Source of the DNA: Escherichia coli | GTDB taxonomy: Bacteria; Pseudomonadota; Gammaproteobacteria; Enterobacterales; Enterobacteriaceae | DNA length: 64,000 nucleotides | Direction: 5' to 3' (one strand) | Assembly: GCF_001677475.2 (NCBI RefSeq) | Contig: NZ_CP012498.1 | Part shown: positions 9,001 through 15,000 of the stretch, in pieces | How positions within the stretch are numbered: the first letter of the stretch is position 1 | Layout: every line of letters starts with the position of its first letter | Position numbers: made by a program

Positions 9001-12000
9001 GGTTACCGTCACATATTTTCAGAGAGATCGTTATGGTCGTATTCTCGGGCAGGTTTATGCACCAGACGGAATGAATGTTAATCAGTTCATGGTCCGGGCC
9101 GGGGCTGCATGGGTATATGAGCAGTACAACACAGCTCCCGTGCTGCCTGTCCTTCAGAACGAAGCCAGACAACAAAAACGTGGGATCTGGCCAGATGCTG
9201 ATCCGGTTCCACCCTGGATATGGAGATACCGTAAATAAAGCGATGGCAATCTTATCATTCATCTGTTCTCAGCGGGAATCAAAATGGCGAAAACAAAACA
9301 GGAATGGCTGTATCAGTTACGGCGATGTTCATCAGTCAATATGCTGGAAAAAATTATTCATAAAAACAGAGACAGCTTATCGGGCAGTGAACGTGAATCA
9401 TTTAATTCAGCAGCAGACCACCGGTTAGCGGAATTAATCACCGGAAAGTTATATGACGGGATACCAAAAGAGATATGGAAATATGTAAGGTAATAATTCA
9501 GCATAGTTAATCACCAGGAGCAGATAAATAATGAAGCTGATTATTTTTATTCTTATTGTTCTGATTATTGCAGCGTTACTTATCCGGATTATCCTCAGAA
9601 GTGTAAATCAGCATTCTCCCTTGCTGATGCAATTGCATGCGGCAGGTATACGGACCGGTGATGCAGAGCGAATACTGTCCAGCGGTGAATACTGGCAACG
9701 TCAGAAGACGCTTCTGACAGAAAGGGAAGTCAGTTTTATGAAAGGACTGTTCAGAATTGTGGATATGAAGCGGTGGTATCTGTGTCCGCAGGTACGGGTT
9801 GCGGATATCGTCCAGCTGAACGGGAATATCCGCCACGATCCCGTCCGTGGTGGCAGTTATTCAGGATGGTGTCTCAGTGGCATGTTGATGTGGTTATCGT
9901 TGAGCGGCATTCGTTCAGTATTGTTGCAGCAGTAGAGCTGGATGATGCCAGCCATTTACGACCGGAACGCAGACGCCGGGATATTCTTCTGGAAGAGGTT
10001 CTGAGGCAGGCTGGTATTCAGTTGCTCAGAAGCCAAGATGCCAGAAAACTGCTGCAGATGACCAGAGAATGGCTGAATACAACAGGGGCAGCTCAGCAGT
10101 CACCGGAACATCGTAGCTGACGCCTTCGCGTTGCTCAGTTGTCCAACCCCGGAAACGGGAAAAAGCAAGTTTTCCCCGTCCCCGGCGTTTTCGGTATTAT
10201 TTAGTGAATGGCATTTGTCATATATACAAACATAATATCAACAAGATAAATTAACACGGAAAGCCCGATATTAATATTGGTTTCTTTTAACAGTGCTGAG
10301 GATTCATGAGAAATGGTCAGTGTTTTTCTGGTTTTGATTTGTTGTACCAGAAACCATGTATTAAGAATGGCGATAAGAAAATAGGCAAGGTAAATTGCGT
10401 TAACCATACTATCAACTCTCGTAAAATAAGTGAAAACAGAAACTCACAGCTATCTGACAGATAACGAACGATATCGTTATTATCTTTTTTAGGGGATTTT
10501 ACGTACAAACAGGTATGGAACAATTCGGGAAATGCTGATAATTATTAAGGTTATCAGATGATTAACCGACAGGCTGAAGTGTGGTACTATCGCTGCGGGT
10601 GTCTGAGCCTTTCTGGTTCAGGCAAGACGCAGGTACCAGAAATGCGAAGACCCCACTCGTTAATCCATTAACTCGTGAGGTCTGCATGAAGTTCCTAGCA
10701 GTTCTGATTGTAGCCTCTTCTTTGTAGAGAGGTCAAAGTTTTGTATGACGAAATATGCCCTTATCGGGTTGCTCGCCGTGTGCGCCACGGTGTTGTGTTT
10801 TTCACTGATATTCAGGGAACGGTTATGTGAACTGAATATTCACAGGGGAAATACAGTGGTGCAGGTAACTTTGGCCTACGAAGCACGGAAGTAAGCTGCC
10901 GGGCGGGGACGGAAGTCCCCGTTTTCCGGAAGTGTGAGGTATTTCAGGGGCAGACACCCGACATGCCAGAAACAGCCGGTCCCGCCCGGGGCCGGCATCC
11001 TGGTTAAGGCATTTCCAGCTTTTCAGTCATTTCATTATCAAAATCACATTAAACGGTCGTAATCAGACATGATTTGTGCGCCAACACAGATCATCGTCAC
11101 AACTTTCAAGTCGCTGATTTCAAAAAACTGTAGTATCCTCTACGAAACGATCCCTGTTTGAGAATTGAGGAGGCGAGATGTCGCAGACAGAAAATGCAGT
11201 GACCTCCTCATCAGGTACAAAGCGAGCATACCGAAAAGGTAATCCTCTGACGCTTGCAGAACGTCAGCAGGCATCTCTGGCAAGAAAACGTGCCACACAT
11301 AAAGAACTCAGAGTGTTCATTCCTGCTGCGTTAAAAGCGCAATTACAGGAGATGTGTGAAGCTGAAGGTGTTACTCAGGCTGAGATGATTGCTGAACTGA
11401 TAAAGCAGAAGAGTGCTTTCAGCTAACTAAAATGTAGCGACATCACATTCTTGCCTGTTTCTGGTGTGCGTGATAGATTGCTGATCGTTTAAGGAATTTT
11501 GTGGCTGGCCACGCCATAAGGTGGCAGGGAACTGGTTCTGATGTGGATGTACAGGAGCCAGAAAAGTGAAAACCCCGATAATCTCCTTCAAGTTTGGCGA
11601 CATGAAAGATTACCGGGGCCCCATAAAACCGCATAGCCAACAATCAAGCTATGTGGGGAGTATAGTTATATGCCCGGAAAAATTCAAGACCTCTTTCTGT
11701 GCTCACTCCTTCTGCGCATTGTAAGTGCTGGATGGTGTGGCTGAGCTTCAACAAACTTATTACCGCCAGGTAAAGAACCCGAATCCGGTGTTCACACCCC
11801 GTGAAGGAGCAGGAACGCTGCCGTTCTGCGAAAAACTGATGGAAAAGGCGGTGGGCTTCACCTCCCGTTTTGATTTCGCCATTCATGTGGCACATGCCCG
11901 CTCCCGGGGCCTGCGTCGACGCATGCCACCGGTACTGCGTCGCCGGGCTATTGATGCGTTGCTGCAGGGGCTGTGTTTCCACTATGACCCGCTGGCCAAC

Positions 12001-15000
12001 CGCGTCCAGTGCTCCATCACCACGCTGGCCATTGAGTGCGGACTGGCGACGGAGTCTGCTGCCGGAAAACTCTCCATCACCCGGGCCACACGGGCCCTGA
12101 CGTTCCTTGCAGAGCTGGGACTGATTACCTACCAGACGGAATATGACCCGCTTATCGGGTGCTACATTCCGACCGATATCACGTTCACACCGGCGCTGTT
12201 TGCCGCCCTTGATGTGTCTGAGGATGCAGTGGCAGCTGCGCGCCGCAGTCGTGTTGAATGGGAAAACAGGCAGCGCAAAAAGCAGGGACTGAATGCACTG
12301 GGTATGGATGAACTAATGGCGAAAGCCTGGCGTTTTGTGCGTGAGCGTTTCCGTAGTTACCAGACAGAGCTTAAGTCCCGTGGAATAAAGCGTGCCCGTG
12401 CGCGTCGCGATGCGGACAGGCAGCGTCAGGATATCGTCACCCTGGTGAAACGGCAGCTGACGCGTGAAATCGCGGAAGGACGTTTCACTGGCAATCATGA
12501 GGCTGTAAAACGCGAAGTGGAGCGTCGTGTGAAGGAGCGCATGATTCTGTCACGTAACTGTAATTACAGCCGGCTGGCCACCGCTTCCCCCTGAAAGTAA
12601 CCTGCACTGAATAATCCGGGCCCGCGCCGGAGGCATCTGCACGCCTGAAGCCTGTCCGCGAACAAAAAAGCAGCGCCATATACAAAAAACAACCTCATCA
12701 TCCACCTTCTGGTGCATCCGGTTTCCCCTGTTTTTGATACAAAACACGCCTCACAGACGGGAAATTTTGCTTATCCACATTAAACTGCAAGGGTCTTCTC
12801 CATAAAGTTACAACCGTTCATGTCATAAAGCGCCAGCCGCCAGCCTTACAGGGTGCAATGTATCTTTTAAACACCTGTTTATATCTCCTTTAAACTACTT
12901 AACTACATTCATTTAAAAAGAAAACCTATTCACTGCCTGTCCTTTGGACAGACAGATATGCACCTCCCACCGCAAGCGGCGGGCCCCGACCGGAGCCACT
13001 TTAGTTACAACACTCAAATACAACCACCGAAAAAAACCCGATCCTGCGCAGAACTGAAACCACAAAGCCCCTCCTCATAACTGAAAAGCGGCCCCGCCCC
13101 GGCCCAAAGGGCCGGAACAGAGTCGCTTTTAATTATGAATGTTGTAACTAAAAGTTTTCATCGCTGTCAGTCTTCTCGCTGGAAGTATTGAGTACACGCT
13201 CGTAAGCGGCCCTGACGGCCCGCTAACGCGGAGATACGCCCCGACTGCGGGTAAACCCTCGTCAGGATCACTCCGACCGCGCACAGAAGCTCTGTCATAG
13301 CTGAAAGCCGGTATGGCTTAGCAGCTACCCCGTTCTGTCAAGAAAAATCGCTTGAACTCCGACGTACAGCCCCCTAAGTACTGCCAGCAAGCTGTCAGCA
13401 CTAAGTCCCCGATACAGCGCGGCGTAGCCGCGCTAACGGGGTTAAAAGGGCTTACCTATACTTCATCATCGCTGAAAGCCCGCACGGCCTCGCAGGGCAG
13501 GGATGGGATAGGTGAAACCTATCAATACGTACCGGCTTACGCCGGGCTTCGGCGGTTTTACTCCGGTATCATATGAAACAACAGAGTGCCGCCTTACATG
13601 CCGCTGGCGCGGCATCAAAACCCCTTTCTTCCCCAGTGAGCTCTGTACTTAATGTGTATTTTCATTTATTGGTGAAATTTGATATTTGCGCAATTTTCCC
13701 GTTCTGATGTATTTTATTCTTTCGGAGGCTATAATATGTTTAATGTGATTACTCACCCGACCGCACTGGATGAGCTGCTGGAATTACCAGACAATCTGCG
13801 TGGTCGCATAGCCAGACTGATTGAACGGCTGGAACAGGAAGGTAACAAAATGAAAATGCCTCACAGCCGTGTAATTGGCGGAGGGCTTTTTGAACTGAGA
13901 GTCGGGGATAAAAATATCGCAAGGACACTGTACGCTTATGCAACGGGTAACGAAATCTATCTGCTGCATTCATTTGTGAAAAAATTGAAATCGCCAGGAT
14001 GCGCCTGAAGGAGATGAAATGATGAAAGTAAAAGGTGTTCCGTTCACTCAGGTAAAGCAAAAACTGCTTAATACTCCAGAAGCTGTCAAAGGGTATGAAG
14101 ATGCCGATAAAGAACTGGAGATGGTAGAAATGTTGTACGAAATGAGAGAAAAAGCGGGGTTAACAAAGTCTGCTCTGGCCGAACGAATGGGGTTACGTCC
14201 GTCAGCCATCAGTCGACTGGAAAGTAATCCTTTAGGAGCCAGTATGAAAACTTTGACAAAATATGCTCAGGCCTGTGGCGCAACCATCGATATTCACGCA
14301 GTCTATTGATTTGCATCTGTCAACACTGGAGCTCCGACAGGGGGTTTGAAGTCCACGTATAGGAAATTGAAAAACCAGGCGATACCGCTGTCCGCACTTT
14401 ATGCCACGTGCGCCTCTCAGTTTTTTCTGTCACTCCGGTGTTTTTTTCTTCGGACGGTCGGTTTTTATACCACGGCAGACTATTTTTTATACTTGCCCCG
14501 ATTCCGGACAGTACTTAGCCTGTATCAGCATGGGATATACCTCAGCAGACTGTGTAGTGGATCACAAAATTAGGACACCGGGATAACCTGTTTCCACTTT
14601 TCTTCATGTAAGCTACGGTGAATACCGAATAAATGACAAAGAACCCGCACTGGCCACTTTGCTTTCAGCCGTGTGATTAGCGCGACAGCTTCCCGGGGAT
14701 TTCTCTCATCAGCACCGCAGCCTGCTTTAGTATTTCTTTTTCCATCTCAAGGCGCTTTATCTGCGCTTTAAGCTGCTGAATTTAGCGTTGTTCAGGGGTA
14801 ATAGCATTACCAGCTGGCTCATTTTGATCATGCATCACCTCATTTTCACTGTTTTAATATTAACAGGATTTCGAGGTGTCCTGAATTACCGATCCACTAC
14901 AAGTTGAGGTCCAACCCGGATTTATTCAATAAATCCATACAAACTTGGTTATTACCTGTTCGGTATAATGATGAATCTTTGAATAAAACAGGAGCACACA

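Follow-up and report, generated by a model that had tools for sequence, protein, structure and literature searches.

The subject of this analysis is a 64,000-nucleotide (nt) stretch of an Escherichia coli plasmid (NZ_CP012498.1, assembly GCF_001677475.2), here called the window, and all coordinates given for this plasmid are positions within it. We identified two regions derived from replicons of the IncFII (RepFIIA) family. The segment 11178-13616 reads as a canonical basic replicon of the R1/R100 type that is predicted to be functional, and 59771-60063 reads as the nonfunctional relic of a second replicon; we give this combined reading a probability of about 0.8. The replicon and the replication fork trap that it carries are textbook R1/R100 biology that has already been described, and no new mechanism is involved. 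What our analysis adds is modest, namely, the breadth of conservation of the Ter sites together with a neighboring structured core, the old long and short forms of that structured region, and the exact anatomy of the relic.

An earlier note on this DNA, made from the sequence alone, had placed a RepFIIA replicon at 11178 onward. We find that this replicon is complete, with RepA1, CopB, and CopA all scoring above their cut-offs, and that its right limit now lies at 13616. Its features, from left to right, are as follows.

11178-11426, plus strand: copB (repA2), encoding the repressor of the repA1 promoter; an open reading frame (ORF) of 82 amino acids that matches NCBIfam NF010256 "replication regulatory protein RepA" at 138.3 bits (cut-off, 87).
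11564-11652, minus strand: gene for the CopA antisense RNA of copy-number control; full-length match to Rfam RF00042 at 87.3 bits (gathering score, 60).
11670-11744, plus strand: tap, encoding a 24-codon leader peptide to which repA1 translation is coupled; ORF read directly and collinear with R100 tap.
11737-12594, plus strand: repA1, encoding the IncFII replication initiator, with a GTG start; match to TIGR03474 incFII_RepA at 585.8 bits (cut-off, 446.9).
12769-12956 (approximate limits), plus strand: oriR, which contains an A+T-rich stretch and, at 12771-12779, the DnaA box TTATCCACA; nearly identical to R100.
12997-13019, minus strand: Ter site of the terRL type, with core GTTGTAACTAAAGT and with G6 present; conserved in R100.
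13084-13130, no strand assigned: G+C-rich hairpin between the Ter sites (inverted repeat I1, with 22-nt arms that are 77% complementary and a 3-nt spacer); conserved in R100.
13132-13154, plus strand: Ter site of the terRR type, ATTATGAATGTTGTAACTAAAAG, with G6 and the 11-bp core intact.
13193-13324, no strand assigned: conserved core and candidate leading-strand priming site (G site), with the 25-mer CGCTAACGCGGAGATACGCCCCGAC at 13221-13245.
13325-13495, no strand assigned: 171-bp long-form segment not present in R100; an indel relative to R100 with direct repeat D1 at its borders.
13496-13616, no strand assigned: distal part of the structured module, with hairpins CCGGC-N4-GCCGG and CGCCG-N5-CGGCG and a terminal hairpin, ATGCCGC-N4-GCGGCAT (13597-13616).

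The repA1 product also matches NF010313 at 616 bits and shares 94% amino acid identity with RepA of NZ_AP028095. In R100, tap is annotated at 43746-43820 of record L003, and the overlap of tap with the GTG start of repA1 is 8 nt here, as it is there. From copB to 13616, nucleotide identity to R100 is 92 to 95%, excepting one 171-bp indel. More than 5,000 records in the plasmid collection match this stretch, and the top identity among them is 97%; therefore, this exact plasmid is absent from the collection. Judged from its sequence, the replicon is probably functional.

A perfect DnaA box does follow repA1 at 12771-12779, as the earlier note had it. The oriR of R1 reportedly spans 188 bp beginning at its DnaA box (Masai et al. 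1983), and we have taken the limits of oriR here (12769-12956) from that length. Downstream of oriR lie the only two exact occurrences of the 10-mer GTTGTAACTA in the window, one on the minus strand (13002-13011) and the other on the plus strand (13141-13150), and both sites extend to the 11-bp Ter core GTTGTAACTAA. These are the two oppositely oriented sites noticed previously, here with small corrections to their coordinates, and they are the only exact cores in the window, where by our estimate about 0.03 exact 11-mer cores would be expected on both strands. When one mismatch was allowed, the search returned five matches (two exact and three mismatched) versus 3.9 expected by chance. Both sites keep G6 and positions 10 to 20 of the TerB consensus AATAAGTATGTTGTAACTAAAGT, and the left site keeps positions 21 to 23 as well. 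Together, the pair forms a 17-nt inverted repeat that is 94% complementary, with arms at 13000-13016 and 13136-13152 that lie 119 nt apart. A third Ter-like 10-mer, GTTGTAACTT, at 12805-12814 on the minus strand inside oriR, lacks G6 and was rejected as probably not a Tus site.

The nonpermissive face of a Ter site is the side of positions 1 to 6, so that the 13141 site is expected to stop rightward forks and the 13000 site leftward forks. These orientations match the published fork trap of R1 and R100, as does the identity of 92 to 95% to R100 over the region from repA1 to 13616, outside the 171-bp indel. The previously proposed trap of this type, with putative Tus binding, is thus supported at the level of sequence comparison. 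The arrangement is also widespread. Of 39 related loci, 35 have a terRR-like site 78 to 85 nt to the left of the core 25-mer, 28 have an inverted, terRL-like site, and 27 have both, across genera whose RepA proteins are 53 to 95% identical. Published work on R1 locates terRL and terRR between oriR and the leading-strand start, and a report on NR1-type plasmids assigns the ter sites to the repA4 stability region (PMC4398462). The core at 13193-13324 lies in a position compatible with the leading-strand start of R1 beyond the ter sites.

To examine this core and the module to which it belongs (13193-13616, here copy 1), we searched a set of genomes, one from each species, for perfect matches to the 25-mer at 13221-13245. 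The search identified 44 loci, mostly in Enterobacterales (Citrobacter, Klebsiella, Enterobacter, Raoultella, Pluralibacter, Edwardsiella, Pantoea, Erwinia, Mixta, and Izhakiella), with a few of the 44 records titled as unrelated taxa. In loci with enough flanking sequence, the 25-mer lies 570 to 770 bp after an IncFII-family repA (53 to 95% amino acid identity); elsewhere, it follows initiators of different clades, some of them with a CopA-like control region. An alignment of 38 distinct module sequences contains 82 columns that are at least 90% conserved. Thus, the Ter pair and a nearly invariant core of 130 nt travel jointly in FII-family replicons of many Enterobacterales genera.

Folded as single-stranded DNA and compared with shuffled sequences, the minus strand of the core reaches -34.5 kcal/mol (z = -4.19) and the plus strand gives z = -2.41; the corresponding z values of the distal part of the module are -3.3 for the plus and -3.6 for the minus strand. 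Consensus folding of the 38 members yielded a single compensatory pair. Covariation is near zero because the core hardly varies, and it therefore can neither confirm the structure nor choose between strands. No Rfam family matched the module at the gathering threshold or at a permissive E value, and a scan for promoters and terminators returned chance-level matches only.

The 171-bp segment by which copy 1 differs from R100 is bounded by 30-nt direct repeats (13295-13324 and 13466-13495) that are 80% identical. Its recent insertion into copy 1 was rejected, as loci of Pantoea and Klebsiella, and of Pluralibacter as well, carry this segment too. The long form is therefore old, and the short forms appear to have arisen by deletion from one 30-nt repeat to the other. 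Beyond the terminal hairpin, at 13616, the alignment to R100 stops, and the two plasmids diverge.

Taken together, these features suggest a replication cycle of the following kind. CopB and the CopA RNA would set the level of RepA1, which would open oriR with the aid of DnaA at the 12771 box. The leading strand would then be primed a few hundred bases downstream, within the core at 13193-13324 and most likely on the minus strand, and would proceed rightward. Any leftward fork, heading toward oriR, would be halted at once by terRL (at approximately 13000, minus strand), and the rightward fork would be halted by terRR (at approximately 13141, plus strand) on its return after one round. The two Ter sites would in this way form a Tus-dependent trap of 120 bp that keeps replication unidirectional and prevents rolling-circle over-replication.

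The second region lies more than 46 kb away, among insertion sequence (IS) fragments. Its features are the following.

58698-59463, minus strand: fused IS fragments in one ORF, with an IS481-family N-terminal part and element end (59072-59463) cut by an IS3/IS911-type piece (58698-59071).
59455-59772, plus strand: dead hok/flm locus of the leading region with its 3' part kept; 126 bp, comprising most of the hok coding sequence, is missing.
59771-60005, plus strand: copy 2, the short-form remnant of a module that lay downstream in a second IncFII-family replicon; its left truncation falls within the conserved core.
60001-60063, plus strand: remnant of a gene, now a pseudogene, for a ribbon-helix-helix antitoxin whose partner is a RelE/ParE toxin; matches the 5' end of L007 1766-2050.
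60064-61240 (right end approximate), plus strand: IS630-family element that cuts the relic; its transposase gene (60168-61199) matches NF033545 at 248.6 bits (cut-off, 100).

Pairwise alignment with MAFFT misplaced blocks of the repeat owing to the 171-bp indel, and we therefore used BLAST with 13100-13700 as a query against the window. This identified three collinear blocks: 13200-13246 corresponds to 59771-59817 (96% identity; E = 3e-16), 13265-13319 to 59822-59876 (82%; E = 2e-7), and 13529-13564 to 59915-59950 (97%; E = 8e-12). Weaker similarity continues to about 13616 in copy 1 and 60005 in copy 2. The earlier note had described a shortened repeat at 59765-59950. The repeat itself stands, with limits of 59771-60005, and most of the apparent shortening stems from the old long form of copy 1. 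Copy 2 is also collinear with the modules of R100 and of the H81 type, and with an orphan module on the Shigella sonnei plasmid pINV (NZ_CP140620, approximately 172383-172632; L002, 5994-6243). Like the H81 module and the pINV orphan, it retains the distal variant of the 30-nt repeat; the terminal hairpin is retained with different base pairs.

Several observations tie copy 2 to a replicon. Its top matches in the plasmid collection are just 76 to 84% identical, and most of them, among the records listed, lie about 1.4 to 1.9 kb into records that start at an IncFII-family repA. Its nearest relatives are found 600 to 770 bp downstream of IncFII-family repA genes, the best of them, in NZ_AP028095, at 600 bp after repA. 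In the region common to these modules, the identity of copy 2 is 83% to the NZ_AP028095 (H81-type) element and to the pINV orphan versus 74% to copy 1, and copy 1 is itself 89 to 93% identical to R100-type elements. A ribbon-helix-helix antitoxin gene follows the module in NZ_AP028095, and the antitoxin stub that follows copy 2 matches it in two pieces (19 of 20 and 36 of 44 nt), being frameshifted and lacking about 24 nt. We conclude that copy 2 is what remains of a second FII-family replicon, one from a sublineage other than that of copy 1. This agrees with the earlier suggestion that the repeat is the footprint of a second FII-like replicon, which is favored by the post-repA position of its relatives, the sublineage distance, the antitoxin stub, the lack of terminal inverted repeats and target-site duplications, and the absence of the element from R100-type leading regions.

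Copy 2 is also strongly decayed. It departs from the alignment at 17 of the 82 conserved columns and is the most degenerate of the 38 members, 35 of the other 37 showing zero to three departures. Missing are the leftmost 12 nt of the core as well as the inner hairpin with its 14-nt tip, and five conserved columns carry substitutions. Its fold is no better than chance (z = -1.3 to -1.4). Still intact are a 47-nt block that contains the invariant 25-mer, and the CTCCGACCGCGCACAGA block. Copy 2 begins to the right of the terRR position, which does not fit a second functional IncFII replicon. Remnants of repA1, for which the earlier note proposed searching the flanks of the repeat, were absent there and elsewhere in the window, as were remnants of copB and oriR; tblastn and blastn returned only 11178-13199.

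The neighbors named in the earlier note are likewise present: an IS630-family transposase gene and IS3/IS911-type pieces (57955-59071), along with the IS481 fragment. In the fused ORF, the NCBIfam IS481 match covers residues 33 to 132 and the IS3 match residues 142 to 224, and the IS481 fragment is 92.6% identical to an IS481 element beside hok in NZ_CP069499. The left boundary of the IS630-family element falls at 60064/5, where matches of 97 to 98% to its other copies begin. The hok segment is 88% identical to L001 6185-6509 and L004 7001-7325 and 84 to 85% identical to R100 and L005; in all of these, it lies downstream of psiA, the order in the two 88%-identical plasmids being ssb, psiB, psiA, and then hok. 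At the hok locus next to copy 2, there is no Rfam match for sok, and ssb, psiB, psiA, and oriT are all absent from the window, in which a search for further DNA of leading-region origin likewise returned nothing.

At the left junction of copy 2, the homology to hok ends with GATTATTC and is followed by the module, (TC)GTTAGCG. An intact module reads ...CTCGTAAGCGGCCC, and its start is TCGTAAGCG. In L001 and L004, the closest relatives in the hok segment, an IS66-family element is inserted after exactly the junction nucleotide; its left end is GTAAGCG, and its end reads GTAAGCGCATC. A deletion across the 9-bp microhomology formed by the direct repeats TCGTAAGCG would produce the observed junction between hok and the module. 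Such a deletion would have taken with it the IS66 element, oriT and tra, and the repA-oriR-ter region of the second backbone. We regard this deletion as the likeliest event, albeit unproven and at clearly less than even odds. The IS630-family element accounts for the removal of everything to the right of the antitoxin stub. Cointegrate formation, which was also proposed earlier, may have brought the two backbones together. Loss of the second backbone would be tolerated only because other replicons are present, these being the first RepFIIA replicon and RepFIB. The latter, previously mentioned as part of the plasmid, corresponds to a Rep3/RepB-type initiator gene with an adjacent recombinase gene, located on the minus strand (54049-55026) and sharing 96% identity with many IncF plasmids.

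We considered whether copy 2 might never have belonged to a second replicon. The two copies are co-oriented, their blocks are collinear, and they reside on one molecule, as they would if copy 2 were an internal segmental duplication of copy 1 that later diverged. This origin is very improbable given that the distances above place copy 2 with the H81 type rather than with copy 1, that copy 2 is a short form with the distal repeat variant, and that it is followed by the H81-like antitoxin stub, a Gp49/HigB-type toxin and a helix-turn-helix antitoxin being found after copy 1 instead. Since copy 2 abuts a leading-region hok in the same orientation, and since ssi/Frpo elements are known in F-like leading regions, it might instead be a native element of this type that aids early gene expression or the synthesis of the complementary strand once conjugation has occurred. 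In R100 and NZ_CP069499, whose leading regions are intact, hok is followed by another sequence and no copy is found there, so the element is not native to leading regions. Moreover, among the 44 loci with the 25-mer, the copies with examined flanks follow rep genes, except for the orphan L043 and the transposon-interrupted L012 and L013, and the hok locus beside copy 2 is dead and isolated from the rest of a leading region. We hold a leading-region origin to be just as improbable as a duplication.

A generic mobile-element end, an outcome that the earlier note had named as refuting its proposal, is the least probable of all and already largely refuted. In this explanation, the repeat would derive from an IS66-family element or a miniature inverted-repeat transposable element, given that its left edge resembles the starts of IS66-family inverted repeats: the module starts with TCGTAAGCG, the IS66-family element of L001 and L004 starts with GTAAGCG at the same junction, and the module also occurs as an orphan, in Shigella sonnei pINV and Pantoea. 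The likeness to the IS66 end ceases after 7 nt, no matching terminal inverted repeat or target duplication is found, and the left breakpoints of the orphans differ; the fixed distance to terRR in 35 of 39 loci fits a part of a replicon rather than a transposable unit. Somewhat better placed, but still improbable, is the idea that the relic has been retained as a working primase-dependent priming site for lagging- or complementary-strand synthesis. The intact 47-nt and CTCCGACCGCGCACAGA blocks would fit such a role, and other orphans (pINV and L043) show zero to one departure at conserved columns. Set against this are the exceptional degeneracy of copy 2, its missing core nucleotides and inner hairpin, its five substitutions, a fold no better than chance, and its surroundings of dead genes and IS elements. 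We therefore favor the reading of copy 2 as a nonfunctional relic of a second FII-family replicon.

Several points nonetheless weigh against parts of our account. The microhomology scenario draws on one match of 6 of 7 nt and on plasmids whose hok segments share just 88% identity with this one. Neither the plasmid collection nor the E. coli genomes contain a record that spans the junction between hok and the module, the exact junction 25-mer is absent from metagenome contigs, and no intermediate was found. The deletion of the inner hairpin is by itself no proof of decay because L016 shares it and yet keeps a terRR-like site at the canonical distance (its left flank is short, and repA was not seen). 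Our analysis covers 64 kb of the plasmid, and the remainder of the second backbone could lie beyond the window. The core at 13193-13324 is a putative counterpart of the leading-strand G site of R1/R100, which was reportedly described by Masai and Arai (1989) and by Bernander et al. (1992), and it is the position of the core that suggests this. Finally, when the complementary-strand origin of phage G4 (3860-4020) was compared with both strands of both copies, local scores fell within the shuffled range in what is a simple test, blind to short motifs.

Orphan and rearranged modules also occur elsewhere. The pINV orphan sits between a gene for a small membrane protein and IS1, with no rep gene or Ter site, and its left breakpoint is the same nucleotide as that of the Pantoea locus L043. 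In L012 and L013, two contigs of a Pantoea stewartii genome that has the exact core 25-mer on five contigs, the end of a Tn3-family transposase gene lies about 60 nt to the left of the core, at the place expected for terRR. In four other loci (L018, L019, L032, and L033), a CopA/copB-like control region and the module of ter sites plus core are kept. A tblastn search with RepA1 of the window returned at most a weak match in these four (23% identity, in L033), and the two loci that were checked for ORFs, L018 and L032, encode two different initiators. This suggests that the initiator has been exchanged modularly within a shared framework. By a broader reading, which we think rather unlikely, the Ter pair and core form a self-contained start-and-stop cassette that is swapped among Enterobacterales replicons with differing initiators, the interval of about 60 bp that separates terRR from the core breaks and recombines repeatedly and thereby sheds orphans, and some of these orphans may still prime. 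The candidate cases of such breakpoints are a handful only: copy 2, the pINV orphan, Pantoea L043, and the Tn3-family insertion in Pantoea stewartii. If this reading were true, the interval from terRR to the core would be where forks arrest and the leading strand begins.

The surroundings of the first replicon differ from those of its relatives. Between the finO-side backbone and copB, a hok/sok cassette lies within 10190-11041 (sok, RF01794, 10597-10757, 81.3 bits; hok ORF, 10745-10894); R100 has no counterpart of it there, and the similarity between R100 and the window is interrupted between 10190 and 11041. Directly after the replicon, at 13736-14309, are a Gp49/HigB-like toxin gene (PF05973) and a helix-turn-helix antitoxin gene. 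The toxin-antitoxin pair in this place is pemIK in R100 and a ribbon-helix-helix-RelE/ParE pair in the H81-type replicon, and both are unlike the pair found here. Rfam matches on the minus strand include AS-traI at 3973-4049 (104.8 bits) and AS-pc02 at 8431-8613 (183.8 bits), which fit an F-like tra/finO backbone upstream of the replicon, as well as isrN at 48112-48254 (155.5 bits).

Near RepFIB and the relic, two further segments may be of interest. At 56620-57614, RepFIB and the IS911-type element are separated by a gene for a small ParA-type ATPase (93 bits, below the NCBIfam cut-off of 180) and, after it, an ORF of 120 amino acids without a Pfam match, and the two may be a partition pair. 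Just past the IS630-family element, at 61244-61717 on the minus strand, a low-G+C ORF of 157 amino acids has a weak match to Peptidase_C58 (YopT-like; 26.8 bits, with a cut-off of 23) and may be a fragment of a secreted effector gene.

The exact coordinates reported here can be used to annotate the region in which replication of this plasmid starts and stops. The relic indicates that a second backbone of the FII family, belonging to a different sublineage, was once part of the plasmid or recombined with it and that the plasmid has a patchwork history, and the relic helps to reconstruct the assembly of large, IS-rich IncF plasmids of the virulence type. In replicon typing, orphan modules of this kind should not be counted as replicons.

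Compared with R1 and R100 (NR1), the first replicon has the same copB-copA-tap-repA1-oriR order and control elements, the same DnaA box, the same inverted Ter pair before a structured block, and the same limit of conservation on the right. It differs from R100 in having the 171-bp segment (13325-13495), in the hok/sok cassette upstream of copB, and in the toxin-antitoxin pair after the replicon. In addition, terRR matches the chromosomal Ter consensus further here, with GTTGTAACTAAAAG in place of the GTTGTAACTAC of R100. The leading-strand start of R1, the G site, and ssiA of R100 are reportedly the sites treated by Masai and Arai 1989, Bernander et al. 1992, and Nomura et al. 1991. Like them, the core lies a few hundred base pairs past oriR and beyond ter, and its primary sequence is strongly conserved across replicons; it is also predicted to form several stable hairpins as single-stranded DNA. 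On the other hand, it has no significant similarity to the G4 origin and nearly no covariation, and it is set beside the published site by position.

The trap shares with the chromosomal Tus-Ter trap of E. coli the 11-bp core, G6, and opposed sites that admit forks into the interval between them but not out of it. Here, in contrast, the interval is only about 120 bp wide and lies beside the origin of a unidirectional plasmid, and Tus of the host would be used, no tus gene having been seen in the window. For the relic, the closest parallel is the Shigella sonnei pINV orphan, which is likewise a module of the H81-type sublineage without repA, oriR, or ter, situated among IS elements on a large plasmid of the virulence type. 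The orphan differs from copy 2 in its flanks, in its left breakpoint (equivalent to 13193 rather than to 13200 for copy 2), and in its better conservation (94% identity to H81, with one departure at conserved columns), and because of these differences the two arose independently.

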